From contig CAVZKK010000012.1 in NCBI GenBank assembly GCA_963775925.1, forward strand, positions 36,390 through 100,389: a stretch of 64,000 bases of DNA, read 5' to 3'. Shown here in pieces: positions 15,553 to 62,300 of this stretch. Both the position numbers and the translations under genes were made by a program. The notes under the pieces are model-generated. The model was not told the DNA's origin, ran no database searches, and worked only from the letters and a program-made list of their open reading frames with translations. Within the stretch, counting starts at the first letter, position 1, and each line of letters opens with the position of its first letter. The DNA is from Candidatus Bathyarchaeota archaeon (lineage in GTDB: Archaea; Thermoproteota; Bathyarchaeia; Bathyarchaeales; Bathycorpusculaceae).

Positions 15553-16849
15553 ATGTCGGAAGAATACGTTTCCAAAACCTCCAAATCCAAAGCCTTGTAC
15601 GAGCGAGCTAAAAAAGTCCTCCCAGCCGGAGTGTCATACGGGATAAGATATTTTGAACCCTACCCATTTTACACTGCAAAAGCGAAGGGAAGCAAACTTT
15701 ACGATGTTGACGGAAACAAGTACATCGATTTTTGGTTAGGACATACTGCACTTATACTTGGACATAGCCCTCCAGCCGTGGTTGACGCTGTTAAAAAGCA
15801 ACTTGAAAATGGCACCCATTACGGAACATCCCATGAACTAGAGATTGAGTTAGCTGAGCAGGTTGTGAAAATGGTTTCAGGCGCAGAAATGGTGCGGTTC
15901 GCAAATTCTGGAACAGAGGCAAATATGTATGCAACGTGTTTAGCTCGTGCATGCACTGGCAGAAGCAAAGTTGCCAAGTTTCGAGGGAGGATGGCATGGA
16001 GGCTACGATGCACTTCACGTAGGAGTTCATTATCCCTTTAATATTCCGGAATCGGCTGGCTTAACAGCCGGAGCCCTTCAGGACACAATTCTTTTGCCTT
16101 TCAATGACCTTGAAGGAGTTGAAGAAAAACTGAAGAATGAGAAAGTGGCTTCCATTGTAATTGAGCCAGTCTTCGGCGCTGGCGGGGGCATCCCAGCAGA
16201 AAAGGAGTTTTTGAAGGGACTTAGGGAATTTTGTGATGAGAAAGAGATTCTGCTGATTTTCGATGAGGTAATCACTGGTTTTCGATTGGCTCCAGGCGGA
16301 GCCCAGCAATATTATGGTATAGCGCCAGACATAACTGTTTTTGGGAAAATTTTGGGAGGAGGCTTCCCCATAGGCGCCTTCTGCGGATGCAGAAAAATCA
16401 TGGAAAGATTAGACTCGCTTCTTCATAAACGCCCACATTACTCGTTTCACGGAGGAACCTTCGCTGCAAACCCAATAACGATGACGGCGGGCTTGACAAC
16501 GCTAAAAATCTTAGAAGATGGCCAATTGATAAGCAAACTGAACATGGTTGGAGACAAGATAAGAGAGCAATTGAGAGAGATTTTTGAAGGAAACGGTGTA
16601 GATGTGCAGGTTACGGGCACTAGTTCCATTTTTAACACTCATTTCACAAAAGAAAAGGTCAGGGACGCCAATGCCACCTTAAGGGCTGACAGAAAGAAAC
16701 TTGTCGATTACAATCTAAAATTGATTGAAAATGGAGTCTTCTTTTTGCCGACCCATAGTGGAGCATTAAGCACTGCACACTCTAAAGCCGATGTAGAAAA
16801 ATTATTTTTAGAAACGGAAAAATATGCGAAAAAATGCAAAGCGGCATGA
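15553..16849 (+). CDS. hemL: Glutamate-1-semialdehyde 2,1-aminomutase-like class-III aminotransferase, frameshifted near 15950-16040
   Basis: YGTSHELEIELAE, FANSGTEANMYA, DEVITGFRLAPGG and FGKILGGGFPIGAF are typical of GSA aminomutase/class-III aminotransferases. Two overlapping ORFs are collinear with HemL. Confidence 0.65.
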
Positions 16850-17708: not shown

Positions 17709-19016
17709 TTGGAAAAAATAGACATTCTGATTCATGGATGCACTATTTTGCCGATGAATGGTAAAGACTGCATAAAGGACGGAATGCTACTTATAAAGAA
17801 CGGGAAAATAGCTTTCATGGGCAAATCTGCACTCGCAAACAGCATAGAAGCTGATGTGAACATAAATGCAAAAGGTAAAGTTGCCCTGCCAGGCTTGATT
17901 AACTGTCACACACATGTTCCCATGACTCTGTTTAGAGGAGTAGCTGAAGATCAAGAGTTGAATACTTGGCTGAAGCAAACTATTTGGCCCTTAGAGGCTA
18001 AGCTTAGGCAGGAGGATGTTTATGTTGGAGCCCTCTTAGGATGCCTAGAAATGATCAAAAGTGGAACGACATGTTTTGCTGACATGTATTTTCATGAAGA
18101 CATGATTGCAAAAGCCACGGAGAAAAGCGGATTAAGGGGCGTTCTGGCACAAGGCATATTTGAAGCCGGAAACAAGATGCTAGGCGAAAAAATGCTTGCT
18201 GAAAGCGTAAATTTTGCCAAAACTTTCAATGGATACGCTAATGATAGGGTGAGAACAATGCTTGGCCCTCATGCGGCTTACAGTTGTAGCAAAAACTTGC
18301 TCACAAAGGTCAGTAAAAAGGCTTCGGAGTTAAATGTTGGTGTGCACATGCATTTAGCTGAATCAAAAGCCATATTTTGGGAATTTGAGAAGAAATATGG
18401 CTCCAGCGAGGTTGAATTTTTAGACAAAATGGGCTTTTTGAAAGGGCATGTTCTCGCCGCCCACTGCATAAAATTGTCAAACGAGGATATGCTTATCCTT
18501 TGTAAACGTGGCGTTAATGTGGTTTATGTTCCTGTGGCTAACATGAAACTTGGTTTAGGCGCAGCAAAAATAAAGGACTTAACCGATTTGGGTGTCAACG
18601 TGAGTTTGGGAACGGATGGGCCAGCTAGTAATAATTCCCTTGACATGTTTGAAACCATGAAGATTGCGGCTTTACTTCAAAAACTCACCTATCAGAATCC
18701 TAAAGTTATGCCAGCCTACGAGGTTTTAAAGATGGCGACAATAAATGGGGCAAAAGCCTCGGGATTAGAGAAAGAAATAGGTTCTCTTGAAGTAGGCAAG
18801 AAAGCCGACATAATATTAATTGATCTTTCAAAGCCTCACCTAAAACCCTTGCATAACATTTACGCAAGCATTGTTTATTCTGCACGCGGAAGCGATGTGG
18901 ACACGGTTATCGTTAATGGAAAAATTTTGATGGAGAATAGACAAGTGAAAACTTTAGATGAACAAGCTGTGATGGAAAAAGCTGAAAAAACTGCTTTGGA
19001 TTTGCTATCACGGTAA
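17709..19016 (+). CDS. Amidohydrolase of the MTA/SAH deaminase family (MtaD-like)
   Basis: ALPGLINCHTHVPMTLFRG metal-binding HxH motif, SLGTDGPASNN, and length of 435 aa, as in MtaD/SsnA/guanine deaminase-type enzymes. Confidence 0.7.
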   Translation: MEKIDILIHGCTILPMNGKDCIKDGMLLIKNGKIAFMGKSALANSIEADVNINAKGKVALPGLINCHTHVPMTLFRGVAEDQELNTWLKQTIWPLEAKLRQEDVYVGALLGCLEMIKSGTTCFADMYFHEDMIAKATEKSGLRGVLAQGIFEAGNKMLGEKMLAESVNFAKTFNGYANDRVRTMLGPHAAYSCSKNLLTKVSKKASELNVGVHMHLAESKAIFWEFEKKYGSSEVEFLDKMGFLKGHVLAAHCIKLSNEDMLILCKRGVNVVYVPVANMKLGLGAAKIKDLTDLGVNVSLGTDGPASNNSLDMFETMKIAALLQKLTYQNPKVMPAYEVLKMATINGAKASGLEKEIGSLEVGKKADIILIDLSKPHLKPLHNIYASIVYSARGSDVDTVIVNGKILMENRQVKTLDEQAVMEKAEKTALDLLSR

Positions 19017-19067: not shown

Positions 19068-20030
19068 ATGGCGCCAATAATTCGAATTGAGAACCTTACT
19101 AAGAAATTCGGAAACTTTGTGGCAGTTGACAGTCTAAACTTGGAAGTTGAGGAAGGAGAAATTCTTGGACTTCTGGGACCCAACGGGGCAGGGAAAACAA
19201 CTGCCATTCTTATGCTTGCAACAGTCATTAGGCCTACTGAAGGTACGGCTTTGGTTGGCGATTATGACATAAGAAAGAATCCGGACAAAGTGCGCGGGCT
19301 TTTGGGCATAGTGTTTCAGGAGCCTAAGATGTTGTGGGTTGCCACGCCTTGGGATATAGTGAACTGGCACGCAAAGGTTTGTGGGTTGTCAACTCAAGAG
19401 CGGAAGCGAAGGGTTAAGGAAGTATTAGATGCTTTAGATATGTGGGAGTCTCGGCACAAGAACGTTCATGCGCTTTCTGGCGGCATGCGAAAACGGGTTG
19501 AAATGGCTAAAGTTCTGATTCAAAAACCCAAGATTGCAATCGTTGACGAGCCAACTGCCCAAATTGACATAGTAGGTAAACATAAAATATGGAACATGCT
19601 CCTTGAACTCCGCGACGAAGGAAGCACCATTATCCTTGCCACAAATGAGCTTTATGAGGCTGATCAGCTTTCAGACCGTGTTGGAATATTGCACAGGGGC
19701 AAACTGATCGTGTGTGATACTCCTAAGAAGCTAAAGGACAGCATTCTGGGCGGCGACATCGTTGATGTTCAACTTGAAAAAGACGCTTCAGAGCAGATCG
19801 TTAAAGAGCTTAAAAGTCTAAAAGAAGTTGTCGATGTCATGCAAGTTAAGCCGACTAACTTGCGCCTTTACTTGAACCGGGTTGAGGAGGTTGTTCCGCA
19901 AATAATGAACTTGTTCATGAAGAACGATGTCTCAATCACTTCCATACGCATGAGTGAACCAAGCCTTGACGATGTATTCGCGCATTACACAGGTTTAACC
20001 ATTGAAGAAGCACAGAAAAATGGAGAGTGA
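19068..20030 (+). CDS. ABC-2 type transporter ATP-binding protein (module copy 1)
   Basis: Walker A GPNGAGKTT, signature LSGGMRKRVEMAKVL, Walker B IAIVDEPT, plus an approximately 90-aa C-terminal domain. Roughly 70% identical by eye to 62301-63278. Confidence 0.85.
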   Translation: MAPIIRIENLTKKFGNFVAVDSLNLEVEEGEILGLLGPNGAGKTTAILMLATVIRPTEGTALVGDYDIRKNPDKVRGLLGIVFQEPKMLWVATPWDIVNWHAKVCGLSTQERKRRVKEVLDALDMWESRHKNVHALSGGMRKRVEMAKVLIQKPKIAIVDEPTAQIDIVGKHKIWNMLLELRDEGSTIILATNELYEADQLSDRVGILHRGKLIVCDTPKKLKDSILGGDIVDVQLEKDASEQIVKELKSLKEVVDVMQVKPTNLRLYLNRVEEVVPQIMNLFMKNDVSITSIRMSEPSLDDVFAHYTGLTIEEAQKNGE

Positions 20031-20055
20031 ACCGTAAACGAACAAGCTTCTCTTA

Positions 20056-20796
20056 GTGGTTGAAAGAGACATACGCCTATTCTTCCAATACAAGTTTCTA
20101 ATTATAATGCGAGCCATATGGTTCGTTTCACAAATAGCTTTGTTCGGACTCATCGCCTCGCGCATGATGAGCGTTCCAAACTACTTTCAATACTACGTGG
20201 CTGGACTTTCTGTGATGACGCTTTATTCAGCCGCCATATTCATCGGATTTGACATTTACGAAGAGGCAGAACATGGCGTTTTTGAGTACTTGCTTAGCTT
20301 ACCTGTTTCTAGAAGACAGCTGGTGATAGGACGATCAATCGGCGGAGGTCTCAGATCATTCATATACGTTGGACCGTTAATAGCCGTGTCATTGTATGTT
20401 ATCGGCTCCATCAATCCGATTAACTTCTTAGTTGCTCTGTTTGCACTTTTCCTATTCTCTTTCGGCGTCTCTGGCATGAGCATAACAATAGCTGTAATGA
20501 TAAAATCTAGCGACCGCTTCGACATATTAATGGGCGTCCTAGACGCCTTAATCGTCCGCTTAAGCACAGCAATGTATCCTCTGGCAATCGTGCAAGCAGC
20601 CAACCCCCTTTACGGCGGACTTGCAAGTTTAAATCCTTTAACTTTTGTTTCGGATTTGTTCCGTTGGGGCGCAGCAATAATAACGCTTGACAATCCACTG
20701 TTGCCGTTGCTTGGCGTGATTGCGTTCTTTTCACTCTTCACCTTTGTAGGTATAATAATCTACGAGAGACGCATAGAAGGAGGAGGATGGCAGTAA
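20056..20796 (+). CDS. ABC-2 family permease (module copy 1)
   Basis: Six transmembrane segments with an ABC-2 layout. Paralog of 61498-62286. Confidence 0.7.
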   Translation: MVERDIRLFFQYKFLIIMRAIWFVSQIALFGLIASRMMSVPNYFQYYVAGLSVMTLYSAAIFIGFDIYEEAEHGVFEYLLSLPVSRRQLVIGRSIGGGLRSFIYVGPLIAVSLYVIGSINPINFLVALFALFLFSFGVSGMSITIAVMIKSSDRFDILMGVLDALIVRLSTAMYPLAIVQAANPLYGGLASLNPLTFVSDLFRWGAAIITLDNPLLPLLGVIAFFSLFTFVGIIIYERRIEGGGWQ

Positions 20797-21579
20797 TTGA
20801 GAGGCATAATCCGCATGGTTGAACACGATTTTAGGAACTTCTTCCGATACAAATGGTGGCTTGTAGGCTTAATCAGCATGAACCTAGCGGATTTATTCAT
20901 CATGGCTATCGTTTACAATCAAATGTTAAGCAGTGCAGTGATGCAGGAAATCAAGAGCTACTTCAATTTTTTTGCACCCGGGCTAACTGTAACAGGCTTG
21001 TTCGCCTCAGCTTTCATGATTGGGCGCGAGATAAACATGGAACGCCGAAGAGAAATACATCAATACATGCTAAGTTTGCCTATGACTAGGCTTGAGCTGG
21101 GTATCGGTCGTGTGCTTTCCGGCGGACTACGGGGCATGGTTTACATGTCGCCCTTGTTGCTGACCTGTTTCGTGTTCCTAGGATTCCCCACAGTACCGCA
21201 GTTGCTTCTAATCTTGGTAGTTCTGTTTTTCTTAGCCATCGGCATTTCCGGCTTAAGCATCGCCATTGCCGTCTCCACATCAAGCCTTGAAAAATTTATC
21301 ACGGCAAGAGGCCTAGTTTACTATACACTGTTCTTCTGCAGCAGCGTCTTCTATCCACTCTCTCTGATCCAAGATTTGGGCCGTGATGGTAAATTTCCGA
21401 TGATATTAGTGAATTTGGCGGAGGTTAACCCTTTGACTAACGGTTCAGACATGATTCGCTCTTTTCTGCTTGGTACCCCGCCTTTTTCCCCAAACATGAT
21501 TCTCAGCGTTATAGTCTTTTCAACAATTTTCACACTTGTCGCGGCGTTCGCCTATATCGAAATAATAGAACGTACATAA
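20797..21579 (+). CDS. ABC-2 family permease, second subunit (module copy 1)
   Basis: Starts immediately after the previous stop. Six transmembrane segments. Paralog of 60719-61501. Confidence 0.7.
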   Translation: MRGIIRMVEHDFRNFFRYKWWLVGLISMNLADLFIMAIVYNQMLSSAVMQEIKSYFNFFAPGLTVTGLFASAFMIGREINMERRREIHQYMLSLPMTRLELGIGRVLSGGLRGMVYMSPLLLTCFVFLGFPTVPQLLLILVVLFFLAIGISGLSIAIAVSTSSLEKFITARGLVYYTLFFCSSVFYPLSLIQDLGRDGKFPMILVNLAEVNPLTNGSDMIRSFLLGTPPFSPNMILSVIVFSTIFTLVAAFAYIEIIERT

Positions 21580-21671
21580 TGCGCAAACACTGAAATTTTC
21601 CTGTATTTTCGAGGTTAAATTTATGAATATGAATAACGTATCTTCTTTTCTTCCGCCTCCACAAGTTTGAT

Positions 21672-23045
21672 TTGAAGGTTAAATCAATGAGTGAAGTGAA
21701 AGCCATCTTTGAACCGCGAAAGGTTGTCCTAATAGGTTCAAGCGTGATTCGGGAAAAAGTCGGAATGACTTCTCCTCAGCTTTTCAAAGACGTCAGTTAC
21801 AACATGGAGAAATTTTTCCGTGGAAAAACATATATCTTGGACTTAGATGGGAAAGCAGGCTATAACAAACTGGATAAACTGCCTGAAGTTCCAGAGCTTG
21901 CAGTGATAATACTTCCGCCAAAGCAGTCTATTATTCAAGCGGAAAAATGCGCGAAGATAGGCGTCAAAGCCCTTGTCATGATTACTGGCGGATACAAAAA
22001 CCAGCAGCGCCAGCAACTGCTTAAACTTAAAGAAGAGTATGGCATTAGAATTTTGGGACCTAACACGATTATGGGCGTAATAAACACTGTCAATGGGTTA
22101 AACACAACCTTTGAAAGAAATGTTATGCCCAAAAAGGGAAACATTGCAGTCATATCGCAAAGCGGTGGAGTCGGCGCATGCATACTTGATTGGGCATGCT
22201 TTTACAACATTGGCATAAGCAAATTTGCTTTCATGGGAGACAAAATAGACGTGGACGACGTTGACTTGCTGCAATATTTTCGAAAGGACAAAGACACGAA
22301 GGTTATATGCCTATACATGGAAGGAATAAAGAACGGGAGAAAATTCATAGAAGAAGCAAGAAAAATCGTTAAGAAAAACCCAGTTCTTGCCTTAAAAGGT
22401 GGAATAACACAAGAATCAGCCCAAAGAGCCAAGTCGCACACGGCTTCGATAGCTGGTTCAGACGAAATCTTTGATGCAGCCTTTAAGAAGGCTGGAATAA
22501 TAAGAGTTGAAAACATAGAAGAATTGATGGACGCAGCTGTAGCCCTTTCGAAGCAGCCTCCAATGTTAGGAGATAGGATTGCTATCATAAGCAATGTAGG
22601 TGGACCAGCAATACTGGCTGCAGATGCTGTTGCGGAAAACAGTCTAAAACTTGCAACTTTATCGAAGAAAACAAAAATGGAAATCGAAAGTCTGTATCCA
22701 GGCGTGGACGCAACTAACCCCATAGATATGATAGCTGACGCCAGAGCCGATCGATACAAGAAAGTGCTGGATTTGGTGCTTGCAGACAAAAATGTAGACG
22801 GTGTCTTGATAATAAACATGCTTAAGTCCTGCTTCTTCGAACCAAAAGACGCCAAGGTCATTCCAAAAATAGCGTCAAAATATCCAGACAAACCAGTTGT
22901 GGATGTGCCAGCCGGTGGAGAAGACTTTGCACTCGTGTCCCAGGTATTGGGCAGTACGAGGATTCCGTTGTATAATTTGCCTGAAAAAGCCGTTAAGGCT
23001 CTAAAAGCTTTGAGAATTTATGGTAAAATTGTTGAAAAGCATTAA
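21672..23045 (+). CDS. Acyl-CoA synthetase (ADP/NDP-forming) alpha-subunit-like protein, CoA-binding (module copy 1)
   Basis: CoA-binding Rossmann start (VVLIGSS), CoA-ligase domain, and a conserved phosphohistidine loop (KSHTASIAGSD). 457 aa, like stand-alone ACD alpha subunits. No ATP-grasp beta domain is encoded nearby. Confidence 0.6.
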   Translation: MKVKSMSEVKAIFEPRKVVLIGSSVIREKVGMTSPQLFKDVSYNMEKFFRGKTYILDLDGKAGYNKLDKLPEVPELAVIILPPKQSIIQAEKCAKIGVKALVMITGGYKNQQRQQLLKLKEEYGIRILGPNTIMGVINTVNGLNTTFERNVMPKKGNIAVISQSGGVGACILDWACFYNIGISKFAFMGDKIDVDDVDLLQYFRKDKDTKVICLYMEGIKNGRKFIEEARKIVKKNPVLALKGGITQESAQRAKSHTASIAGSDEIFDAAFKKAGIIRVENIEELMDAAVALSKQPPMLGDRIAIISNVGGPAILAADAVAENSLKLATLSKKTKMEIESLYPGVDATNPIDMIADARADRYKKVLDLVLADKNVDGVLIINMLKSCFFEPKDAKVIPKIASKYPDKPVVDVPAGGEDFALVSQVLGSTRIPLYNLPEKAVKALKALRIYGKIVEKH

Positions 23046-23104
23046 CTATATTTCGTAGATGCATAGATTCTATTTGTGGTTGTCGCCTTCCTTTAGGTGA
23101 AACA

Positions 23105-24807
23105 TTGGTTCAACATTCAAAACGCTTAAACGAGGAACTATTTGGGCAAATCCTTGACTTTTGTAGACATGTCGCTGGCTCTTGCCAAATTACGGCAGCA
23201 TGCATATGCAGTCATTACGCTTTAGGATTGTCCAATACGAAAACGGCAGTGGAAGTTTTGCTTGTAATTCGTGGTTTTCAGCCGAGGCTTATGAATTATT
23301 TGAAGGTTTTCGATGAAAGAAACATAATTGTTCTTGCTGTTGATGAAGGGGTTTTTGAAATGGATGTTGATAGAGGATTTTTGGGCGAAGCCTTGGCTGG
23401 CGGATTAATTTTTCCATACACACCTTTACTGAACGAAGTTTACTTGCATGTTCAAGAGGTTAAATTGAAAAAACGCCTAATCCTCGAACTTTTAGAAAAC
23501 CTTGTTTTAGATTTCCCAGAACTTTCCTACGAGATTCACATAAAACCTGAATATTTCATGTACGAAACCATGCTCGTTAGAGCCCGACTTTTTCCGCCAA
23601 TGATATACAATTTGCTGAGTTTTATGCGAGAAAAAAGCAAAAAAGAAAACATAGAAAAAGTTCTTCGCGGATATTCACAGGCGCTGAAAGATTTAGAAAA
23701 AGAAAAATCAATTAATTTCACAAATGGTTACGTGACAATCTCAGGACATTTTTTGGACAAAACCAGAAGCCGAAAAACCCGCTTCATAAACCTCTTTAAA
23801 CCCGCACAGAAGACCTTATTTACATCTTTACTTAGTATCTTTCCGCAAATTGTGGGCTTTCTTTCCCAAAACAAAGAAATACTCCCTAAATTACGTAGAG
23901 TGACTGAGGAAAACTCAATTGTCCATCAAATTGAAGACCCTCAAAAGTACTTGTATATTCCTACCGCCAGCGGGCTTGTTCCATTAGCGAACAAGATGGA
24001 TATTAAAGCCTTTGCGAGGGATGTTCTTTCTGCAGATAAGGACGCGGAAATTGGGATTGAGGAAATTGGCGGCGTTTTAAACGATGCCTACTTAGTTAAG
24101 ATCCCAGTAAATGGTCAAGAGCGAAAAATTGTTGTTAAAAGGTTTAGGGACTGGTCGAGTTTCAAATGGTTTCCGCTTACGTTATGGACTGTTGGAACCA
24201 GAACCTTTGCTGTTTTGGCGCGTTCAAGACTTGAAAGGGAATGCGCCATAAACCAACTGTTATATTCAAATGGTTTTGCTGTTCCAAAACTTCTATATGT
24301 AAATCATGCTGAACGTTTAATTTTCATGGAATATGTGGAAGGCGAAAACCTTGAAAAAGCAATAAGAAGAATCATGGTTTCGAAAAACGCTGACGAAATG
24401 AAGAAGGACTTAAGCATCATAAATAACGTAGGTGAAAAATTCGCTAAGGTGCATGCTCTCGGCATCGCTTTGGGCGACACAAAGCCAGAAAACATTGTGA
24501 TTGGTAAAAACGGTGAAGTTTGCTTGCTGGATTTTGAGCAAGCTTCGCGGAATGGTGACAAGGTTTGGGATATTGCAGAGTTTTTGTATTATGCTGGACA
24601 TTACATTTCACCGTTTGTTGGTGTCGGTCAGCCGAGCTTATTGCAAAGGCTTTTATTGAGGGTTATCTGAAGGCTGGAGGAAACGTTGAAATTGTTAAAG
24701 AGGCTGGAAATCCGAAGTACACAAAAGTTTTCAGCGTATTCACATTTCCACACATAATTTTTGTTATTTCCAACATCTGCAGGAAAGCTGATAAATTGAA
24801 GGAATAG
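23105..24807 (+). CDS. Two-domain protein: N-terminal nucleotidyltransferase-like domain (degenerate in this copy) plus C-terminal atypical protein-kinase-like domain; frameshift near 24620 (module copy 1)
   Basis: Kinase-fold landmarks: VVKRF lysine, catalytic GDTKPENIV, metal-binding DFEQA. The C-terminal 60 aa continue in the 24565-24807 ORF, by analogy with the contiguous copy-2 sequence. The N-terminal region aligns with copy 2's GS...DEKTDVNVLLVID nucleotidyltransferase motif but has lost the aspartates. Confidence 0.5.
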
Positions 24808-24809: not shown

Positions 24810-26145
24810 ATGGTTAAGCATAAAACAACTCTGACCTTCTACGGTGGAGTAAACGAAATCGGCGGAAACAAAATCCTACTTCAAGACAGAGACGTCAAAG
24901 TTTTCTTCGATTTCGGCATGTCCTTCGCTTTGAAGAAGCAGTATTATTCTCCGCCTTTTCTTTCGCCAAAAAGCGAAAAAAGTTTACAAGAGCTTGGGAT
25001 TCTGCCAAAAATTGAAGGCATCTACATTGATGAAAAATCTCCAGAAATCGACGCTGTTTTTATTTCGCATGCACACATGGACCATTCTGCCTACATATCT
25101 TTCATAAACCGTGAAATCCCCGTATACTGCGGCGAAACAACAAAAATTATTTTGCAAGCATCAAGTGAAATGCGTAGAGCCGATTTAGAGTTCAACGTTG
25201 AAAATATAACTTTTAAGCCTTTCAGAACAGGCGATAGCATCACTATAGATCATCTGAAAATTGAGCCAATTCACGTTGACCATTCTATTCCAGGCGCCTA
25301 CGGCTTCATTATCCACACCACTAATGGTGCTGTTGTCTATACTGGAGATTTTAGGGCTCACGGGGCGAAACCTGAAATGACATCTGATTTTGTTGAGAAA
25401 GCCAAAGAAGCCGAGCCTGTGGCTGTTGTTACTGAAGCTACGAACATGACTGGCGCATCTGTTTCTTCGGAAGGTGAAGTTGAAAACAAATTAAATAGTA
25501 TTGTTGGGCAAGCAGATGGCATTGTGCTGGCTGATTTTGCTTACACGGATGTTGACAGACTTAATTCATTCTATCGAATAGCCAAGAAGAATGGGCGATG
25601 CCTTGCTGTTTCACTTAAGCAAGCCTATTTGATGAACGCACTGCGGAAGGATAAGGGCTTGAGCATTCCAGAGCTTAAACGATGAGAATATCTTGATTTT
25701 TCGAAAGTCGAAGAAGAAGTATGACAATTGGGAAAGCCAAATCATGGAAGAATACCCGAATAAGATTGTTAATGTATTCGAAGTTTCGAAGCAACAGTGC
25801 AAAGCCATCCTAGCCATGTCCTTTTATGATTTGGAGGAACTTGTGGAAATCCAGCCAAAGGCAGGTAGCTGCCACATTTTGTCTGCTTCTGAACCCTTCA
25901 ACGAGGAAATGGAAATAGACTTTGAAAGGCTTGTTAACTGGCTTAAGCATTACGGCTTACCACAATATCATGCCCATGTATCGGGGCACATAATGCCGCT
26001 CCAACTGAAAGCTATTATTAAAGAGATTAGCGCAAAAAAGATTTTTCCCATTCACACAGAAAATGCAGACTTATTCACCAAGTTCATGCGAGACCTAAAA
26101 AGCCAAACAGTGCAAACAGAAAAGTGCAAGGAGTACAAAATTTAG
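24810..26145 (+). CDS. RNase J-like beta-CASP metallo-beta-lactamase, frameshifted near 25685
   Basis: HAHMDHS (HxHxDH). Beta-CASP-like DHSIPGAYGF...YTGDFRAHG. C-terminal H-containing motif (HVSGH). The two ORFs total about 440 aa, as in archaeal RNase J. Confidence 0.55.
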
Positions 26146-27013: not shown

Positions 27014-27921
27014 GATCTCTATAATTGGCGCGGGAAAGTTGGAAGTGCTGCAGCATTCAACATTTTAAGGTATAGAATCAGCGATGTTGTCCTAATAGAC
27101 ATTGCCGAAAATTTGGCCAAAGGCGAAGCACTTGACATGATGCAGACTGCGCCTGCAATAGAGTTTGACGGAAAAATCAAAGGAACCAGCGATTTCAGCG
27201 AAATGGAAGGCTCAGAAATCGTAATCGTAACTGCGGGCGAAGCGAGAAAACCTGGAATGACAAGAATTGACCTTGCGAACAAAAATGCAAAGATAGTTAA
27301 ATCCATAGTGAAGGAAGTTGTGAGGTACGCTCCTGAATGCAAGCTTATGCTTGTGACAAATCCAGTTGACATCATTACATACATAGCCTATAAGGAATCA
27401 GGCTTCGAGAGAAACCGTGTTTTTGGAATGGGCAACATCCGAGATGCTCTACGTTTCAGATCTCACATTGCACTGGAACTGAATGTTTCGAGAGAAGATG
27501 TCCGTGCCTTAGTTATAGGCGAACACGGTGATTCCATGGTTCCTCTGTTGAATATGCTTCTGTGTCGGGAATACCCATAACATGTTTGCTTAGAAAAAAA
27601 CAAATTGAGAAAATAGTTAACTTAACAATAACTTCCGGTTCTGACGTCATTAAACTGAAGGGATCAACAACTTATGCGCCAGCAGCAGTCATCGGAATTA
27701 TGGCAGATGCCATTCTCAGAGGCAGAAACAGAGTAATGGGTGTTTCGACTTATCTACAGGGTGAATACGGATTTTCAGACGTTTCAATTGGTGTGCCAGT
27801 AATCCTCGGAAGGAATGGTGTTGAAAAGATTTTGGAGCTCGAATTGATGCCTGAAACCAAAAAACGCCTTGAAAAGTCTGTCTTAACTATAAAAGAGGCT
27901 ATAAAGAAACTAAGTGAATAG
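27014..27921 (+). CDS. mdh: Malate/L-lactate dehydrogenase (LDH/MDH family), with at least two frameshifts
   Basis: The Rossmann GAGxVGS motif is recovered if one A is added to the gggaaagttgg run near 27040. Substrate/catalytic segments include DIVIVTAGEARKPGMTRIDL and IGEHGDSMVPL. The C-terminal part lies in the 27562-27921 ORF. Confidence 0.75.
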
Positions 27922-41056: not shown

Positions 41057-42197
41057 CTATTTTGTTATTTCTCTGCCTATTATAACTCTCATTATTTCGT
41101 TTGTTCCCCCAGCAGAAATTGTTTCAAGAGCATCTCTAAGAAAACGCATTATATGAAATTCTGGCAACGTCCCATATGCCCCATGAATCTGGATAGCCTT
41201 CAAGGCAGTTCTTCTGGCAACCTCACTTGAATACGCCTTCGCCATCGCGATTTCTTTCTGAATCTCCTTACCACTCTTTCCATTGTCAAGCAGCCAAGCG
41301 GTGTGGTAGGCTAACCATTTTGCAGCCTCAATCTCCATTGTCATATCTGCCAACATGAACTGCACTGCCTGAAGCTGAGTAATAGGTTTTCCATATAACG
41401 TTCTTTCTTTGGCAAACTTTAACGCTACCTCATAAGCCGCCTCTGCAACACCTAACGCAACGCCTGTACATCCAGTTCTGCCAATTTCCGAAATTGTCGC
41501 TAATGAAGCCTTAAGCCCATCTCCCTCTCTACCAACCAAGTTTGCTTTAGGTATTCTACAATTGTGGAATATGAGTTCTGACACTTCCATGGCTCGTAGT
41601 CCAGCATGTTTTTCTCTCATCCACTTCAAAGCCTTCCGTGCCCTTCTCTACAATAAATGTGCTTAATCCGTTTGGTCCTTCACCTGTTCTCGCAATAAAC
41701 ACGCAAATATCTGCTACGCTGCTGTTTGTGATGAAGCATTTGCTTCCATTAATGATGTATTCATCGCCTTTCGCTTTAGCCTTAGTCATAATCGAAAGTG
41801 GGTCAGAGCCGCCTGAAGCCTCTGTAACTGCCATGCACATTATTTTCTCTCCTCGCACAATAGGCGGAATATACTTCTTCTTCTGTTCTTCTGTTCCAAA
41901 ATTGAGTATCGCCCACAAGCCCAAAGGCGTGGCTTGAAGAAAAAGCCCAAAAGAAGCGCATGCGCGGGAGATTTCTTCTATGCTTATCATTCTTGCTAAA
42001 TGGCCCATCGGGGAACCGCCATATTCGGTGGGTATGACAATTCCTATGAGGCCTAAATCAGCAATCTTCTTTGCAATTTCTCGTGGAAATTCGGCTTTTT
42101 CATCTAGTTCCAGTGCCTTTGGCAGCAGTTCTTTTTCTGCAAACGTTCGCAATGTATTTTTTAATAGTTCTTGTTCTGGCGTGAGGCTGAAATCCAT
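41057..42197 (-). CDS. Acyl-CoA dehydrogenase, frameshifted near 41556-41629
   Basis: N-terminal alpha domain (MDFSLTPEQELLKNTLRTFAEKEL), middle beta domain, and C-terminal domain with the catalytic-region signature in the 41057-41629 ORF (QIHGAYGTLPEFHIMRFLRDA). Confidence 0.7.
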
Positions 42198-47890: not shown

Positions 47891-48676
47891 TCAGAGCAAG
47901 GCTTTCCGTGCAGAAGTAATGTAGCCAGTGTGTCCAGTCATTAGAGTCTGCGGTCTTGTCTTTCCTCTTTCAGTTTGCATTGCCCGCATTATGCATTCAA
48001 CTGTTTCCATGTCTATGAAATGGTTTTCTTTCAAGGCTTCAACTGTTTTCACGACTTGATCAATTGTTGGGCTGAAAGAGACGAGAAGCCCGCTTCCTTT
48101 CAAAGCCTTGTAAGCGTGTGGGATGACAAGCCATGGAGTAGCCAAATCCAAGACAACAGCATCTACCTCTGTTTCGTCTATGCCTTCTGTTACGTCCTTA
48201 TTCTTAATTGTCACATAATCTGACAAGTTGGCTCTTTTCAAATTCTTCTCTGCAATTTCAATGAATTCTGCTCTAACCTCATAACTGTAAACATGCCCAT
48301 CTGAGCGAATGTGATAGGCAAGGGCGGTTGTCAATGCTCCAGCACCAGTTCCGGCTTCGACAACATGGCTGCCTGGACCAACATTACTAAACATAAGAAT
48401 AAGCGAAATGTCTTTAGGATACATTATCTGAGTTTTTCTCTGAATCTTATAGATATAGTCCTGTAAAGTAGGTTTCAAGACAGCAAATTCAACATTCAAA
48501 CTGCTACTAATGCTGATTCCATATTCTTTCCCAATTAAGTCATCGAATGAGATGAAGCCACGATGAGTATGAAACGTTTTACCCTTCTCAACCTTAACAA
48601 GATAGGTTCTTTTTCTGTCCAAATAGAGGAGAATGTCATCGCCTTCACGAATGTTTTCTGTCAAGGCTAAACACAC
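47891..48676 (-). CDS. trmI: tRNA (adenine-N1)-methyltransferase TrmI (Gcd14 family)
   Basis: N-terminal beta-domain (GDDILLYLDRKRTYLVKV) plus a class-I SAM methyltransferase motif (VVEAGTGAGALT). Confidence 0.75.
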   Translation of the reverse strand: MCLALTENIREGDDILLYLDRKRTYLVKVEKGKTFHTHRGFISFDDLIGKEYGISISSSLNVEFAVLKPTLQDYIYKIQRKTQIMYPKDISLILMFSNVGPGSHVVEAGTGAGALTTALAYHIRSDGHVYSYEVRAEFIEIAEKNLKRANLSDYVTIKNKDVTEGIDETEVDAVVLDLATPWLVIPHAYKALKGSGLLVSFSPTIDQVVKTVEALKENHFIDMETVECIMRAMQTERGKTRPQTLMTGHTGYITSARKALL

Positions 48677-48734: not shown

Positions 48735-50252
48735 CTAAGGTTCGTATCTGAATGGGTGTCTTGCTGAAGCTTTGCGTTCCAATATCTCTTCCTGTGAGGG
48801 CCTTGCTTCCATTGCTCTTCTTATGGCGAATCTCATAGCCTTGTAATTGTTTATGTTTACTCGTTTCGGGTTTGACGCTGTCGGATGCACAAAAACGTTT
48901 GCTATCATCACTAGTTCATCCAAAGCGTCTTTGGGCAGTAAGCCATCATTTATGCTATCAACCACCGCCTTGCCAACTCCACTCATCGCATACACATAAA
49001 CAAGTTCAGCCTGCTGCTCACTCCTAACCGTAACAGTGGGCGTAAGCAATGTCTTAGGCTTAACCTCCTTGCCCTCAAACTTGACTAAAACTGGCTCATG
49101 ACCAGCCCTCGGACTAGCTAAGGTGTCTTCTATAACTTTGCCAACTGGTCCATCATTTAACCCTAATAGAAGGTCAATGTGGGCTACGTCTGCTGTTCCA
49201 GGCGAGGCAAAGGCTTCACCGACCTTCAATGAAAAATCACTTATTCTGCTTGGCGTTTGAGGGATAGCGCCAGAAAACTCGCTTTTGACAACAACTTTCG
49301 GTTTGAACTCCATTTGCAGAGGCTTTTTCTTCAGTTTCCCTAACATTTCCAAATGTAAGCGCATCAGGTCTTCATCTTCATAGCGGAAGACGCCACCAGT
49401 TATAAGTGGTCTTCTCGTTGTTCCCATTTCCAAGCCCATCATATTAAGCCCAGCTTTGACCGCTAATCCACCACCTTGCCTTGTAACGATTCTTACCAGT
49501 GTCTGGATTTTTCTCTGCAGGTCCTGTGCTTCTTCGAAATTGCCTTTCTTGACAAGGTTGTAGATTTGTAGCCAAATGTCTGGTATCAGATTTGCAGATG
49601 CCAAAATCAGTCCATCTGCACCTGCAGCAAGTGCAGCCATAGCGATTTCGTCGTGACCGCAAATGATTGAAATTTTGCCGTAAACTTTTTCGAATAGGGC
49701 CATCATGTAGGGCATGTTGCCGCTGCTGTCCTTTATCCCGACTACATTGTCAATTTCTGCTAGGGCTTCTACAACCCACCATGGAACTTCAAGGCTAGTT
49801 ACCTGAGGAATATTATACAGAATAATTGGCAAGTCAACAGCCTCAGCAACTTTCATGTAATGTTCAAAAATCTCCTTGTCCGTGGGTTTGAGATAGAAGG
49901 GCGAAACAACAAGGGCAGCGTCTGCGCCAACATCGTTTGCATGCTTAGTGAATTCTATAGCGGTTTTAGTTCCAGCGTCGCCAGTTCCAGCAATTACAGG
50001 CACTTTACCATTAACTTGGTCTACAGTGATTTCTACAATTCTTTTTCTTTCTTCCATTGTCATACTGCTGAATTCGCCTGTAGTGCCACACGGGACAACA
50101 CCTGTCACATGATTTTCAACCACAAAATCGATTAGACGCCTCAAAGCTTTTTCGTCTATTTCATATTTCTTCGTAAATGGCGTCACAAGCGCTGGTATGA
50201 CTCCTCTTGGCCAAAATTTCTTTTTCTCTTTCATGCTTCTTTTTTCCTCCAT
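48735..50252 (-). CDS. Fusion protein: DapA-like class-I aldolase (dihydrodipicolinate synthase/NAL family) N-terminal domain plus a C-terminal formaldehyde-activating enzyme (Fae) domain
   Basis: DapA-family blocks (ALVTPF, VPCGTTGEF, VIAGTG) and the Schiff-base lysine region. The C-terminal 170 aa match Fae (VAHIDLLLG, ...RKASARHPF). Confidence 0.65.
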   Translation of the reverse strand: MEEKRSMKEKKKFWPRGVIPALVTPFTKKYEIDEKALRRLIDFVVENHVTGVVPCGTTGEFSSMTMEERKRIVEITVDQVNGKVPVIAGTGDAGTKTAIEFTKHANDVGADAALVVSPFYLKPTDKEIFEHYMKVAEAVDLPIILYNIPQVTSLEVPWWVVEALAEIDNVVGIKDSSGNMPYMMALFEKVYGKISIICGHDEIAMAALAAGADGLILASANLIPDIWLQIYNLVKKGNFEEAQDLQRKIQTLVRIVTRQGGGLAVKAGLNMMGLEMGTTRRPLITGGVFRYEDEDLMRLHLEMLGKLKKKPLQMEFKPKVVVKSEFSGAIPQTPSRISDFSLKVGEAFASPGTADVAHIDLLLGLNDGPVGKVIEDTLASPRAGHEPVLVKFEGKEVKPKTLLTPTVTVRSEQQAELVYVYAMSGVGKAVVDSINDGLLPKDALDELVMIANVFVHPTASNPKRVNINNYKAMRFAIRRAMEARPSQEEILERKASARHPFRYEP

Positions 50253-51696
50253 AGTCCAAATGCTTTCAAAAGAGCCAACTTGATTCCATCATAAGAATTC
50301 ATGTATAATAGGCGTCTATTGACAACCGCTGAATGAACAAAAACTTTGACAATGACCGCGGATGTTTCTACGGATTCTTCGGGAATTATTTCTTCTTCCA
50401 CAGCGTCTGCTATGGCTTTTCCAACAGCAGACTGCACCGGTCCATAAATGATGCTTGCTTGCCTCATACTCTCAATTTTCGCATATGGCACAATAAGCGT
50501 GATAGGTTTGACAGCAAGGTTTGGCTCAACGATTGCGGTTAAAGCCTCGTATCCAGGTTCAGGATTTGCTACAGCCTTTGCCCAACCATAGCCTACTGGA
50601 CTACTCTTTAGACCGCTTAACAAGGATATGTGAACTTTTTCTACTCCTTCACCCGTTGACGCTTCTGTAGTTGCCAACTTGAAGTGCTTTATGTCTTGAG
50701 AGGTGATGCCTAAATCTTTGAACCTTTCTTCTAAGGCTTCTGAGGGTTCAAAGACCGCTTTGGCTTTCATGGGTTCTATTTTTCCTAGTTTTTCAAGTTC
50801 CATTCGCATTTCTTCTTTGACCTCCATGGTTAAGATGCCGCCGCTTACTAGTGGTCTCCGAGTCTTGCCCATGTCTAATCCCATCATCTTTAATGCAGCC
50901 TTAACTGGCACTGCACCACCATGCCTAACAAAAATTCTTGCCAGCTTCTGTGCGTTCATTTGTAGTTCTTTGGCTGTTTGCAGGTCGCCTTTTTTTACTG
51001 CTTCATAGAGTTTTATCCAAATGCCTGGAATAACGTTTGCAGAGGCTAATATTGCCCCTTTGGCTCCAGCTGCTAACGCTGGCAAGACAACTTCATCATG
51101 GCCGCAGACAATGTTAATCTTGTCGCCAACTGTTTGCAAGAGTTCAAGCATGTAGGGGAGATGCCCACTGCTGTCCTTTAAGCCGACAACATTGCCTATT
51201 TGAGCCAAATCTTCCACTACTTCTCTGCTTAGAAAACTTCCAGTACACTGTGGAATATTATATAAGACAATGGGAATTGTTGTGGCTTGCGAAAGTTCGT
51301 AAAAATGTTGAAAGTCGCCTTTATCTGCGGGACGCAAATAATATGGCGATACAACTAAGAGCTGCGTCTGCGCCTGCTTTCTCTGCATGTTTCGTCAATT
51401 CTATTGCTTCAAGAGTGAGAGCTTGCGCCTGTTCCAGCAATAACTGGAACTCTCCCCTTGACCTCATCAATGACTGTTTCAACAGTTTTCTTGCGCTCTT
51501 CTTTTGACATGTAAACAAATTCGCCTGTCGTTCCACAGGGCACAACTCCAGTAACACCTTCGCCTATGACAAAATTCACTAATCGCCTTAACGCTTTCTC
51601 ATCAATGTCCGCGTCATTCTTAAATGGCGTGACTAACGCTGGATAAATTCCTTCTAAATTGAACTTCTTCATCATTGACACCATCCATGTGGGCAA
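50231..51696 (-). CDS. Second DapA-like aldolase / Fae-like fusion protein (tandem paralog), split over three frames
   Basis: N-terminus in 51409-51696 (YPALVTPF...VPCGTTGEF...VIAGTG), a middle piece in 51321-51557 (AIELTKHAEKAGADAAL), and the rest in 50231-51388, ending with a diverged Fae-like domain (VHISLLSG...). Confidence 0.5.
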
Positions 51697-53818: not shown

Positions 53819-55550
53819 TTATTTTGTTTTTCCTGTTTTCTTGCAGAGGTTAGAGATAGCGAAGATTATGTGGGGCTGGGTGAAGATGCTGAAAACTTTT
53901 GTGTATTTTGGTGACCCAGCGTTCTTTATGTTTTCTTTTTTTCCTCCGGTTTCTAGGTATCCTTCAATAAACTCTTTAGCGACGCGCTCTAGAGCGTTTG
54001 CTGTAGAAAGCGGAGGAACATAATGCCCCGAATAATAGAGGAATTCGGCTATGTCCCAGTTTTGGTCACCGTCTCTGGTTGCCTGCTCCAAATCTACAAA
54101 GCATAGTTTTCCATTTGTTGTTACTATGACGTTTTCGGGCTTGCAGTCTCCTAAAAGAGACGCCTAATTTATGAATTTCAGCGATTTTCCCACCAACCTC
54201 CCGTATCAAACCTACTCTTGCTAATGTTTCCCTCTTGCCAGAAAGCATTTCCTTGACAATTTCGCCAAAGTTTTCTCCTTCAATAAACTCTTTGAAAATT
54301 AGCCGTTCTTGAGGGCTGACATACAACGTTTTTGGAACACAAATTCCCTTACTATGTAAAAACTGGTTAATTGCATATTCTCTTTCCAGTCTTGTTCTTC
54401 CAAGAACTGCGAAGGATTTAGTTCCCAGCGACCACAAGGTTAGAGGGAACCATTTGATGCTTGCCCAATCCCTGAACCTTTTAACTACAATCTTTTGTGC
54501 CTCATGACTTCTTTCAAGTGTGAGAAGGTATACGTCGTTTAAGACGCCTCCAATCGGTTTCAATTCCATATTAAGAATTTCTCCGCTGGGAACAGTTTTT
54601 CTTACAAAGTCTTCGATGGTAGTCTTATCTGAGAACGAAACTGGTCCAAGCGGTGTCGGCACAAAAACATGTTTTCTAGGGTCTTCAAGTTGAGAAACTA
54701 AATTCTCAACGTCTGCATCCTTGTGGGTCTGTAGCAAGATTTCTTGGTCATTCATGTAGGGTCTCATCATTTTCGGCAGAACACTCAAAATATTTAGCAA
54801 AGCTGCCCTTTGAACGGCTTTAATGAAAGTTGGAATTCGGATTCTTCGTTTTCTAACGGTGTCTATGAAGTTCCGTGTAATTTTCACATAACCGTTAGAT
54901 GAAGATTATTTTGTTTTCTTCTGCCAATTCGGTAAGTGCCGCTTGATATCCTTTCATCATGCAATCGACATTTTTCTTTTCACGTCCTCTCTCATCATGT
55001 TTAGATACGTGTAGGCTACTGGCGGAAACAGTCGAGCTCTTTGCATCATAGCCTCATACATGAAGTATTCTTTTTCGATGAGTAGTTCTTGAGAGAGTTC
55101 TGGAAACGTAAAGACAATATTTTCTAAAAGTTCCCAAATTATTCTTTTTTTCGCCTCCACTTCTTTCTTCTGCCAGTAACTTTCATTTAGCAGAGGCTGG
55201 TATGGGATGATGAGTTTATTTACGACAAATTCTCCAAGCCACCCTTGCCTAACATCTCTTTCAAACGAACCTTTATCAACCGCTAAAATGAATGCTCTAA
55301 CTTCGTTTAGAGACTTCAAATAACCCTTCAATATAGAACGATAATTATCAATCACCAATAGGACGTTTACATCGGTTTTCTCGTCAGCGTATCCACATAC
55401 ATGCGGACCATAGAAGCATGCAGCTACTATTTCGCGGGAGCCAGCAATACGCTTACAGACGCTTAATATGTTCTCGTTTAGATTTTCATTCTTAAACTGC
55501 ATTTTCATAGTATTTTCCATATTCTTAGCCGCATGGAATTTCTGTGACAA
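53819..55550 (-). CDS. Nucleotidyltransferase / atypical-kinase fusion protein (module copy 2), split over three frames
   Basis: Intact nucleotidyltransferase motif GS...GYADEKTDVNVLLVID. Kinase-like blocks VVKRF and, by hand translation across the frameshift, LGDCKPENVIV...DLEQA. C-terminal 90 aa in 53819-54091. Confidence 0.5.
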
Positions 55551-55779
55551 CTATTTCCTTTTTCTTTTCTTCTCTTTTAGGTTTAATGCGTCTAACGATT
55601 TTTTCCGTTTTTCCCTCCTCTCCGGGACAGTTGTGTTCTTCTGGAAGACAATGGTCTTGGCAATACCATTCTTCACATCTGGTGCATTGATAGGGCAGTG
55701 GAGTTGGTTGTAGACAGTAATTGCAGTGAGATGAAGCATAGCCTACGGTTGCTACATCCAATCTTAGATGTTGGAGCAA
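55525..55779 (-). CDS. AN1-type zinc-finger protein
   Basis: CNYC-x9-C-x2-C-x4-C-x2-H-x5-H-x-C fits the AN1 zinc-finger spacing exactly, followed by a Lys/Glu-rich tail. Confidence 0.5.
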   Translation of the reverse strand: MLQHLRLDVATVGYASSHCNYCLQPTPLPYQCTRCEEWYCQDHCLPEEHNCPGEEGKTEKIVRRIKPKREEKKKEIVVTEIPCG

Positions 55780-56000
55780 TATTTGACAAGATTTTCTTCA
55801 CTATTTCATGGCATTTTTCTCGAGGCATATAATCTGGCAGAACTATTGAGATTTCATTTCCTCGCTGAACTACCGTAAATCGTTGTCCACCAATTTTTCC
55901 ATCTCCAATTCCTTTGGTTCGTTCACGTAACCCCAATAGACGAATAATTTCTCCCCAAGCAATTTGAGAAAGCACTGTTCTAAAAATTAAGTTAGACATT

Positions 56001-57352
56001 TTATCTGTCACATCTAGCCATCTTATAGTATGCTCGCAACGCCTTTAACGCCTTTGCTGCCTTGTCAGGCAAATTATAGACAGGTATCTCAGTGTCCTGC
56101 AAAACCTTATAGACCATATTGAAGTCTTCTCCTCCAGCTGGAACATCAACCACAGGCTTGCCCAAACTCTTTTTTGCGGTTTCAGCAATCGCTTTAGCAT
56201 CTTCTGGTTCAAAGAAGCATGATTTCAGCATGTTTATGACCATAACTCCGTCCACGTTTGGGTCTGCTAAGACTAAGGCTAAAACGGTTGAGTATCTTTC
56301 ACTTCTTGCGTCTGCAATCAAGTCTATAGGGTTGATAACTTCTACTCCAGGATAATGCCTTTCAACTTCTTTTCTTGTTTTTTCTGAAAGCGTTGCTAAT
56401 TTTAAGCCGTTTCTTGCAATTGCGTCTGCAGCGAGGATGGCTGGTCCACCTACATTGCTTACAATCGCTATGTTGTCTCCACGCAGGGGCGGCTGTTTCA
56501 CTAGGGCAATGGCGGAGTTGAGCAGTTCTTCGGCATCTTCAACTCTGATGATTCCAGCTTTTTTCAGTGCTGCGTCAAACACGATGTCTGAGCCTGCTAT
56601 TGATGCCGTATGCGATAAGTGCTCTTCTGAGCCGCTTCCTTGGTTACTCCGCCTTTCAATGCCAGAATTGGTTTTTTCTTAACAACTTCTTGGGCTGTTT
56701 CTATGAATTCTCGTCCTCTTTCGATTCCTTCCATGTAGAGGCATATTGCTTTTGTTTCTGGGTCTTCGTTAAAGTATTGTAGTAAGTCTACGTCGTCGAT
56801 GTCGATTTTGTCTCCCATAAAAACGAATTTGCTTACGCCTATGCTGTAGCAATATGCCCAGTCTAGTAGGCATGCGCCGACTCCTCCGCTTTGAGAGATA
56901 ACTGAAATGTTACCTTTCGTGGGCATTAGGTCTTTTTCGAAGGTTGTGTTTAACCCGTTGGATGTGTTTATGACTCCCATGATCGTGTTTGGTCCAAGTA
57001 TGCGTATGCCATACTCTTTCCTAATGCTCGCTAGTTGTTGTCTTTGCTCATTCTTGAATCCGCCAGTTACCATGACTAATGCTTTGACTCCGATTTTAGC
57101 GCATTTTTCTGCCTCTTGCACTGCCAATTTTGGTGGAAGCATGATTACGCCTAAATCTGGCACTTTCAACAAAGTCTTGCGTTCTTCTTTTTCAATGTCG
57201 ATAAGGATAGTTTGTCCCTGAAAGAATTTCTTCATGTTGTAAACAACGTTTTCAAAAAGTTCAGGAGATGTCATTCCGACTTTTTCTCGAATTTTGCCAG
57301 ACCCAATAAGTAAGACGATTTTTGGTTCGAAGAGTGAATTCACTTCATTCAT
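56001..57352 (-). CDS. Acyl-CoA synthetase (ADP-forming) alpha-subunit-like protein (module copy 2), frameshifted near 56590
   Basis: Collinear paralog of 21672-23045, split into two ORFs (56597-57352 and 56001-56582). The phosphohistidine-loop region is conserved. Confidence 0.55.
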
Positions 57353-57683
57353 GACTTTGCCTCTTTCCTAGAAATCCTAGTTTGAAAGTGAGGGTTCAAA
57401 TATTCTCTTGAATAGGCTTAAACATTTCCTTTTTTTGTTTGCATGTTTGAGATATCGCGCGCAACTTTTGCCCTTCTCTCTTCTGATGAAAACTGGAAAA
57501 ATTTTTTGTTTTTTCATCAATTGCTGAGGGAATCTTTTGTTTTCTGATTTTGAAATAGGCGTTGGTTTGGGTTCTGTTGGGTTTGATAACTATGATAGGA
57601 GTTGATAAATGTTTTCAAGCATTTTGCCCTTTTCAAAAAAGGGTTAAGCTTAATATTTTCTGCTAGCTTCTCTTCTCAGCGTA

Positions 57684-60146: not shown

Positions 60147-60308
60147 AGCGGTTAGAACGAAGAATATTGAACCATTGGTTAAAGCAGGTTGATCTGTACC
60201 AAAAAACATGAATAGTGTTCTCACAAGAATGGCCAATCTTTCAAAATATATTGGAAACCTATATTATGATTACCTTCAAAGGCATGGGTAATAAAGAAAA
60301 AAGGAGAA

Positions 60309-62286: not shown

Positions 62287-62300
62287 GGCAATAGCCTCAT

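Follow-up and report, generated by a model that had tools for sequence, protein, structure and literature searches.

Does an acyl-CoA synthetase subunit encoded next to a kinase fusion form, together with the ABC-2 exporter upstream, a single biochemical system, or are these genes simply neighbors? The question arises at positions 21672-24807 of a 64,000-nucleotide stretch of DNA from a Candidatus Bathyarchaeota archaeon (contig CAVZKK010000012.1, positions 36,390 to 100,389; hereafter the window), where a homolog of the alpha subunit of NDP-forming acyl-CoA synthetase (ACD) precedes a protein that joins a nucleotidyltransferase-like module to a kinase domain. A first-pass annotation, made from the sequence alone, had offered, as one reading of these components, a system that activates, modifies, and exports a small molecule or peptide. 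We found that the fusion is a Tam41-like nucleotidyltransferase/winged-helix module joined to a Bud32-like atypical kinase, and that its tightest neighbor is a gene for an RNase J-like nuclease. Our preferred reading, a tentative one with slightly less than even confidence, is that the block was inherited within the class Bathyarchaeia as three neighboring modules, not one system, and that the fusion and the RNase J-like nuclease act in RNA metabolism.

The fusion protein and its family

Two open reading frames (ORFs), 23105-24670 (521 amino acids, aa) and 24565-24807, are a single gene interrupted by a 1-nt deletion near 24626. The repaired product, copy 1, is 567 aa long. More than 120 homologs measure ~568 aa at 64-94% identity, and one full-length homolog (P0002, 574 aa, 89% identical to copy 1) is unbroken across 24626. 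Homologs of 520-534 aa were considered as sharing the frameshift of the window and were rejected, being N-terminally truncated and intact across position 24626. The N-terminal module, a nucleotidyltransferase fold with a winged helix (aa 1-225), is encoded at 23105-23779 (+), and the linker helices and Bud32-like kinase domain (aa 226-567) at 23780-24807 (+).

Fold comparison identified an alpha/beta nucleotidyltransferase fold in the N-terminal module and the nucleotidyltransferase plus winged-helix architecture of Tam41 (Mmp37); the module also resembles ANT(4'). Identity to Tam41, a CTP:phosphatidate cytidylyltransferase, is only 8-10%, and Mmp37 had no match in any Pfam scan. The kinase domain of the fusion stands where Tam41 has its C-terminal membrane-binding region, and, unlike Tam41, the copies in the window lack the catalytic GS/DxD motif. 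When the N-terminal 320 residues were searched against 1.84 billion representative proteins, only 201 clusters and no generic nucleotidyltransferases were returned, and all 72 full-size matches were 500-629 aa long. This narrow result is explained by the family alignment of 101 diverse members, on which we judged motif conservation: the signature is classic in distant members, where Pfam Polbeta/NTP_transf_2 also matched weakly, and decayed in the Bathyarchaeia groups.

The family consensus at this site is YGSRVxGYARxxSDYDvl, and the third Asp is invariant in the 101 sequences. Both GS and DxD are intact in only ~25 members, among them a single sequence from the two Bathyarchaeia groups, which we call type 1 (including copy 1) and type 2 (including a second copy in the window, described below); that sequence is a type-2 member. 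The DxD position reads xVEV in type 1 and SDxN or SDxH in type 2. Copy 1 carries the degenerate motif CSHYALGLSNTKTAVEVL (SH...TAVE) and keeps the third Asp, D87, while copy 2 carries YGPHVCGYADEKTDVNVL (GP...TDVN), with Ser replaced by Pro and the second Asp by Asn. Neither contains the catalytic signature hG[GS]...[DE]h[DE]h with a third carboxylate. The first-pass annotation had thus recognized the decay in copy 1, visible as xVEV at the DxD position, but its description of the copy-2 motif as intact does not hold, given the departures of YGPHVCGYADEKTDVNVL from the consensus.

In the kinase domain, copy 1 contains the Lys of VVKRF, the loop GDTKPEN, and the metal site DFE, and copy 2 contains GDCKPEN and DLE; the presence of these elements in both copies had been noted previously, and the Lys, the Asp-x-Lys-Pro-x-Asn loop, and the Asp-x-Glu metal site proved invariant in the 101 members, save for the Asn, which is replaced in three. 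Weak, overlapping matches to the kinase clan (Pkinase, APH, Kdo, ABC1, and RIO1) were obtained with Pfam. A sequence search against PDB gave marginal kinase matches only (E of 0.004 or worse), which called for fold searches. Bud32 was the top structural and sequence match, sharing a small kinase fold with the catalytic Lys, Asp, and Asn and the metal-binding Asp. It also ranked first in NCBIfam, at scores far below its cut-offs (61.2 versus 125 bits for TIGR03724 and 61 versus 188 for NF011463). The kinase is therefore nearest to a well-characterized family but falls under the thresholds for membership in it.

Bud32 (PRPK) is the atypical, tRNA-activated kinase/ATPase of the KEOPS complex for the tRNA modification t6A, and it occurs fused to Kae1, as in MJ1130. 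The fusion differs from it in having a Tam41-like N-terminal module in place of the Kae1 partnership and a different, strongly conserved C-terminal tail, and in being confined to some archaea. RIO2 (a winged helix plus RIO kinase) and Ark1 are structurally farther away, and neither has a nucleotidyltransferase module. The Pfam RIO1 score of 19.7 bits lies under the gathering score of 22, and a genuine RIO1 is encoded at 22-576 (186.6 bits), so the fusion is not the RIO1 of this organism. The genuine RIO1 gene is clipped at the window edge, and a gene for a KH-domain protein of the Krr1/Pno1 type comes next (22-1144, +); the two are the usual ribosome-biogenesis pair.

The fusion thus belongs to an archaeal family that is real, conserved, undescribed, and mis-annotated, with a new domain combination. 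Database names include 'tRNA A-37 threonylcarbamoyl transferase component Bud32' (JGI) and 'AarF/UbiB family'. Our literature search found no account of it as an RNase J-kinase neighborhood, a Tam41-like archaeal fusion, or a nucleotidyltransferase-bearing Bud32 paralog. The earlier view of an uncharacterized nucleotidyltransferase-atypical kinase fusion is borne out by this negative result, by the fold, and by the weak Pfam matches of distant members.

Gene neighborhoods within and beyond Bathyarchaeia

The G+C content of the window is ~41%, and the nearest homologs of the flagged proteins are all labeled Bathyarchaeota or Bathyarchaeia. On the plus strand, the block runs from an amidohydrolase through a DrrA-like ABC ATPase, two ABC-2 permeases, ACD alpha, and the fusion protein to the RNase J-like nuclease. 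We mapped the window proteins onto 80 species-representative Bathyarchaeia loci of the type-1 ortholog, which were the best 80 of 470 genome matches, all of them Bathyarchaeia. The gene for the RNase J-like nuclease, a beta-CASP metallo-beta-lactamase protein (24810-26145, +) that starts 2 nt past the kinase stop codon in the window, immediately follows the kinase in 60 of 73 loci, at a median distance of 3 bp. Of 68 loci, 46 have ACD alpha immediately upstream of the kinase and 19 lack it, and 48 of 58 have ABC-2 genes in the same orientation no more than 4.5 kb from the kinase. The proposed linkage of the fusion to ACD alpha and ABC-2 therefore recurs in other genomes, but in this one class only, and the three are not found together wherever the fusion occurs.

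The exceptions within the class are informative. Loci L084, L167, and L174 keep the kinase-RNase J pair and have no ACD alpha, several type-2 loci also lack ACD alpha while the kinase is intact, and in L166 three small genes displace ACD alpha from the kinase. In single-copy loci that resemble type 2, the kinase is followed by RNase J, and ACD alpha is adjacent, displaced, or absent. Locus L173 suggests an ancestral order of amidohydrolase, ABC ATPase, permeases, ACD alpha, kinase, RNase J, a 311-aa protein, DHDPS/Fae, and TrmI. Where small genes take the place of ACD alpha before the kinase, most of them start with a hydrophobic, membrane-like sequence. These small genes were compared with the HExxH protein that accompanies a distant group (below) and proved not to be homologous to it.

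A conserved intergenic element (23040-23104, +) separates ACD alpha from the kinase. It comprises the TATA-like sequence cATTAACTATATTT (23040-23053), which overlaps the ACD alpha stop codon, then AGATTCTATTT, then the Shine-Dalgarno sequence GGTGAA (23096-23101). Across loci, cATTAACTATATtT occurs ~55-60 nt before the TTG start codon and is followed by AGATTCTATTT and by GGTG(A/G)A at -9. Where ACD alpha lies upstream, 45 of 50 loci have the element before the type-1 kinase; where ACD alpha is missing there, 22 of 27 do. By its sequence, it is a putative TATA box and ribosome-binding site of the kinase gene itself, which would make the kinase and RNase J-like genes a two-gene operon independent of ACD alpha. 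Equivalent positions of the element are found in L003-L082, and because its conservation exceeds the needs of a bare promoter, it may also hold a regulatory 5' leader. Another gap, of 92 bp and with a TATA-like stretch, separates permease 2 from ACD alpha copy 1.

Outside these groups the neighborhood is different. In 80 metagenomic loci with family members 24-37% identical to the window kinase, genes for ACD alpha, ABC-2, amidohydrolase, and RNase J are all missing within 10 kb, and the ACD alpha-kinase-ABC-2 linkage is also absent from three further distant contexts. One distant member likewise has a Bathyarchaeia label in its cluster annotation. In a large distant group, the order is an Lrp/AsnC gene, a gene for an HExxH protein of 227-232 aa, which overlaps the start codon of the kinase, and the fusion; the surroundings include S27ae, S24e, DUF359, Rpo7, PIN, aIF2-gamma, S6e, and aIF5B. 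The HExxH protein, which has no Pfam match, was seen at L154:9318-10001, at L171:6322-7020, and in ~30 other distant loci, and may be a clade-specific partner of the fusion. Membrane and PAP2-like proteins are the neighbors in another distant group. Further distant contexts contain an HD-domain gene and a Bmp-type ABC importer, or glycosyltransferases, a HAD hydrolase, and a GCD14-like methyltransferase; an epimerase is also among the neighbors of one group.

A TrmI/GCD14-like tRNA methyltransferase gene lies at 47891-48676 (-) in the window, a few genes downstream of the fusion in Bathyarchaeia. It recurs in L002, L165-L167, L170, L173, and L174, and is immediately nearby in one distant group.

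ACD alpha, the duplicated block, and the rest of the window

ACD alpha copy 1 (21672-23045, +; 457 aa) has the three expected domains in Pfam (CoA_binding_2, 5.8e-8; Succ_CoA_lig, 2.8e-51; Ligase_CoA_2, 3.3e-6) and aligns end to end with structures 2csu (6e-78) and 4xyl (1.7e-67). Its phosphohistidine loop SHTASIAGS aligns with SHTGSLAGS/SHTGSIAGS. The flagged protein is thus genuine, and its domain layout and loop are like those of the ACD alpha proteins of Pyrococcus and Candidatus Korarchaeum. It differs from known ACD alpha proteins in its recurrent adjacency to a kinase fusion, which is specific to Bathyarchaeia, and in its TIGR02717 score in NCBIfam of 398.6 bits, under the equivalog cut-off of 567.15, which indicates a divergent subfamily.

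The first-pass annotation had drawn attention to the missing ATP-grasp beta partner. None was found beside either ACD alpha in the window or among those ORFs of the 64 kb that were scanned with Pfam. In Pyrococcus furiosus, the alpha and beta genes are unlinked, and two beta subunits serve five alpha subunits (PMC3942289). An archaeal ACD alpha without a neighboring beta gene is normal, and the window protein resembles that of P. furiosus in this respect.

The ABC-permease-permease-ACD alpha-kinase block occurs twice within 40 kb, at 19068-24807 (+) and 53819-63278 (-). The second block is 70% identical to the first in the ABC ATPase, 60% and 64% in the permeases, 67-71% in ACD alpha, and 48% in the kinase, which is the most diverged component. 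Kinase copy 2 (53819-55520, -) was reconstructed as 567 aa across three frameshifts. This second copy, on the minus strand, had been noted previously, but the coordinates given for it, 54957-55550, cover its first fragment only. It is a member of a separate and equally well-conserved orthologous group, in which the intact P0271 is 97% identical to it. ACD alpha copy 2 (56001-57358, -) has one frameshift near 56615 and keeps SHTASIAGSD after correction.

Direct adjacency of ACD alpha and kinase, claimed for both blocks, is true of copy 1; in copy 2, a gene for a small zf-AN1 protein (~160 aa, frameshifted; 55527-56011, -; Pfam 3.4e-8) intervenes, with ~1 and 5 nt on its two sides, and an intact 157-aa ortholog of this protein is found in L165 (L165:7509-7982). 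A zf-AN1 plus Peptidase_M50 protein is encoded ~5 kb from a distant family member in L170. Similarly, the exporter lies immediately upstream in the first block, but in the second the nearest genes (57684-60146, +) are divergently oriented, not of the ABC-2 type, and encode an ABC ATPase and a protein with 12 transmembrane segments (12-TM), an arrangement shared with L165 and L166. The paralogous ABC-2 exporter is farther upstream (60719-63278, -). The RNase J-like gene is kept only with copy 1, and the DHDPS/Fae and TrmI neighbors only with copy 2. Two tandem DHDPS (DapA-like)-Fae (formaldehyde-activating enzyme) fusion genes lie at 48735-51696 (-) in the window; L165 has the pair too, and L173 has one such gene.

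The first gene of the first block encodes the amidohydrolase (17709-19016, +; Pfam Amidohydro_1, 6.5e-79), which takes the equivalent position in Bathyarchaeia loci. The DrrAB-like ABC-2 exporter that follows (19068-21579, +) consists of the DrrA-like ATPase (19068-20030) and permeases 1 and 2 (20056-20796 and 20797-21579). Its Pfam matches (ABC_tran, DrrA1-3_C, and ABC2_membrane) give the DrrAB-type architecture, an ATPase with a DrrA C-terminal domain plus ABC2_membrane permeases. The best NCBIfam models were drrA and drrB, both under their cut-offs (293 versus 312 bits for drrA).

At least 12 genes of the window are frameshifted, several at homopolymer runs, and the same genes are unbroken in close relatives. 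Sites include 15947-16041, 24626, 25685-25693, 27562-27580, 41556-41629, 54155, 54905-54990, 56615, and 59022-59068. The split genes encode the RNase J-like nuclease, malate dehydrogenase, an acyl-CoA dehydrogenase, an aminotransferase, FeoB, the 12-TM protein, and the ACD alpha, zf-AN1 protein, and kinase of copy 2. Because P0271 is intact, these breaks are most likely indel errors of the assembly, not gene decay. The RNase J-like gene is broken near 25685; an intact ortholog in L001 matched RNase J structures at 1e-13 and EF2904 at 1.5e-27. In L002 (L002:9745-10469), the RNase J-like gene downstream of the kinase is in short pieces (61 and 206 aa as called), pointing to either local decay or a faulty assembly. 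The only Rfam match in the window was a tRNA (2885-2946); the flagged region had none.

Competing explanations and significance

According to our preferred reading, the first module would be the amidohydrolase with the DrrAB-like exporter, and the second an ordinary NDP-forming acyl-CoA synthetase alpha subunit whose ATP-grasp beta gene should lie elsewhere, as it does in Thermococcales. The third would be the fusion of the Tam41-like/winged-helix module and Bud32-like kinase, representing the undescribed archaeal family. Since the nucleotidyltransferase motif has decayed in Bathyarchaeia and the catalytic residues of the kinase are conserved, the fusion probably works as an ATP-dependent kinase or ATPase whose N-terminal module would provide a binding or regulatory scaffold. 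Judging from conserved motifs and spacing, a promoter of its own would drive the copy-1 type along with the RNase J-like gene that abuts it, and such co-transcription makes a role in RNA the most likely one. Bud32, the RIO kinases, and Ark1 suggest by analogy that this role may lie in the processing or turnover of tRNA or rRNA; Ark1, an archaeal tRNA 2'-OH kinase, sets a precedent as an enzyme with a kinase fold and tRNA as its substrate (PMC10622864). The RNase J and TrmI neighbors, the independence of the intergenic element from ACD alpha, and the position of one distant group among ribosomal and translation genes all count in favor of this reading.

Several points weigh on the other side. 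Adjacency of ACD alpha to the kinase (68%) and its retention in both duplicated blocks are more than random, and linkage to RNase J is confined to Bathyarchaeia exactly as linkage to ACD alpha is. No RNase J gene follows the copy-2 kinase, which is instead coupled to ACD alpha and the zf-AN1 gene across operon-like gaps of only ~1 and 5-18 nt. Small-molecule kinases were close structural runners-up to Bud32. The neighborhoods come from the best 80 of 470 genome matches, the promoter is read from sequence conservation, and RNA binding or activity is argued by analogy.

The system initially proposed, in which a carboxylate or peptide is activated by ACD alpha (by way of CoA or acyl-phosphate chemistry), modified by the fusion, and exported through ABC-2, draws on the order ABC-2, ACD alpha, kinase, which is conserved in most Bathyarchaeia loci and kept in both blocks of the window, as well as on the nearness of the kinase fold to small-molecule kinases, the likeness of the N-terminal module to Tam41 and ANT(4'), and the type-2 members that reach the Pfam Kdo/WaaP threshold. 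Many loci with an intact kinase nevertheless lack ACD alpha or ABC-2, none of the 80 distant loci has the linkage, and the very lineages that bear it have a degenerate nucleotidyltransferase site. The kinase has its own conserved promoter-like element, a gap with a TATA-like stretch stands between permease 2 and ACD alpha, RNase J is the closer companion, and we noticed no biosynthetic genes or precursor peptide in the block. The association is thus confined to one class, often broken, and probably interrupted by a promoter; it supports the one-system proposal weakly, and we consider that proposal doubtful. A slightly better case, though still an unlikely one, can be made for ACD alpha and the fusion as direct partners without the exporter, the fusion controlling ACD alpha by phosphorylation or replacing beta as a surrogate nucleotide-binding partner. 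It would explain the frequent adjacency, the operon-like spacing in copy 2 and L165, the histidine loop kept in both copies of the window, and the lack of a beta gene among the scanned ORFs. Against it, 28% of type-1 loci and every distant group have the kinase but no ACD alpha, the two genes are set apart in some loci by one to three small genes unrelated to them, and beta genes of ACDs are as a rule unlinked. A more specific version, a two-protein enzyme in which the kinase fold takes, gives, or gates the phosphoryl group of the phosphohistidine and the Tam41-like module docks the partner, is compatible with the tight copy-2 spacing and with the pair's survival in both duplicated blocks, and we regard it as very unlikely.

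Two further explanations start from the kinase fold itself. As a bifunctional modifier of small molecules (xenobiotics or lipids) of the ANT/APH or Tam41/WaaP kind, the fusion would form a resistance or envelope-modification island with the efflux pump; the Pfam APH and Kdo matches are consistent with this, as are the PadR regulators and DrrAB-like pump upstream of the fusion in several genomes and the glycosyltransferase and epimerase neighbors in one distant group. We consider it improbable: Bud32 is the better match in structure and sequence, the C-lobe is short and of the Bud32 type, without the APH substrate subdomain (judged from the lengths aligned and from general background), the window copies have a degenerate nucleotidyltransferase site, and the protein is highly conserved across the class among housekeeping genes, unlike accessory resistance genes. 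That the fusion is the Bud32 subunit of KEOPS in this organism, as the JGI name says and the nearest fold might suggest, is the least credible explanation. The protein scores 61 bits against Bud32 cut-offs of 125-199, is 567 aa long with an extra module of ~300 aa against ~200-230 aa for Bud32, and has two paralogs in this genome, and no Kae1 was found among the called neighbors in 14 inspected loci. Within our preferred reading of an RNA role, the fusion could more specifically be a kinase of RNA 5' ends or 2'-OH groups that readies substrates for the co-transcribed RNase J-like nuclease; this is a fairly unlikely possibility, somewhat more likely than the two-protein ACD alpha-kinase enzyme.

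A new CoA-dependent activation and export pathway is currently unsupported by these data. If our preferred reading is true, Bathyarchaeia, which are among the most abundant archaea of sediments, and some related archaea would have an unstudied Bud32-like kinase/ATPase, bearing a Tam41-like nucleotidyltransferase module, in an operon with an RNase J-like nuclease, a new candidate player in archaeal RNA processing, where known regulators are few. The names 'Bud32' and 'AarF/UbiB family', which probably mislead reconstructions of metabolism and tRNA modification, would then be corrected. The family also offers a natural series from an intact to a decayed nucleotidyltransferase site on a constant kinase, which is useful for understanding the origin of pseudo-enzyme domains.

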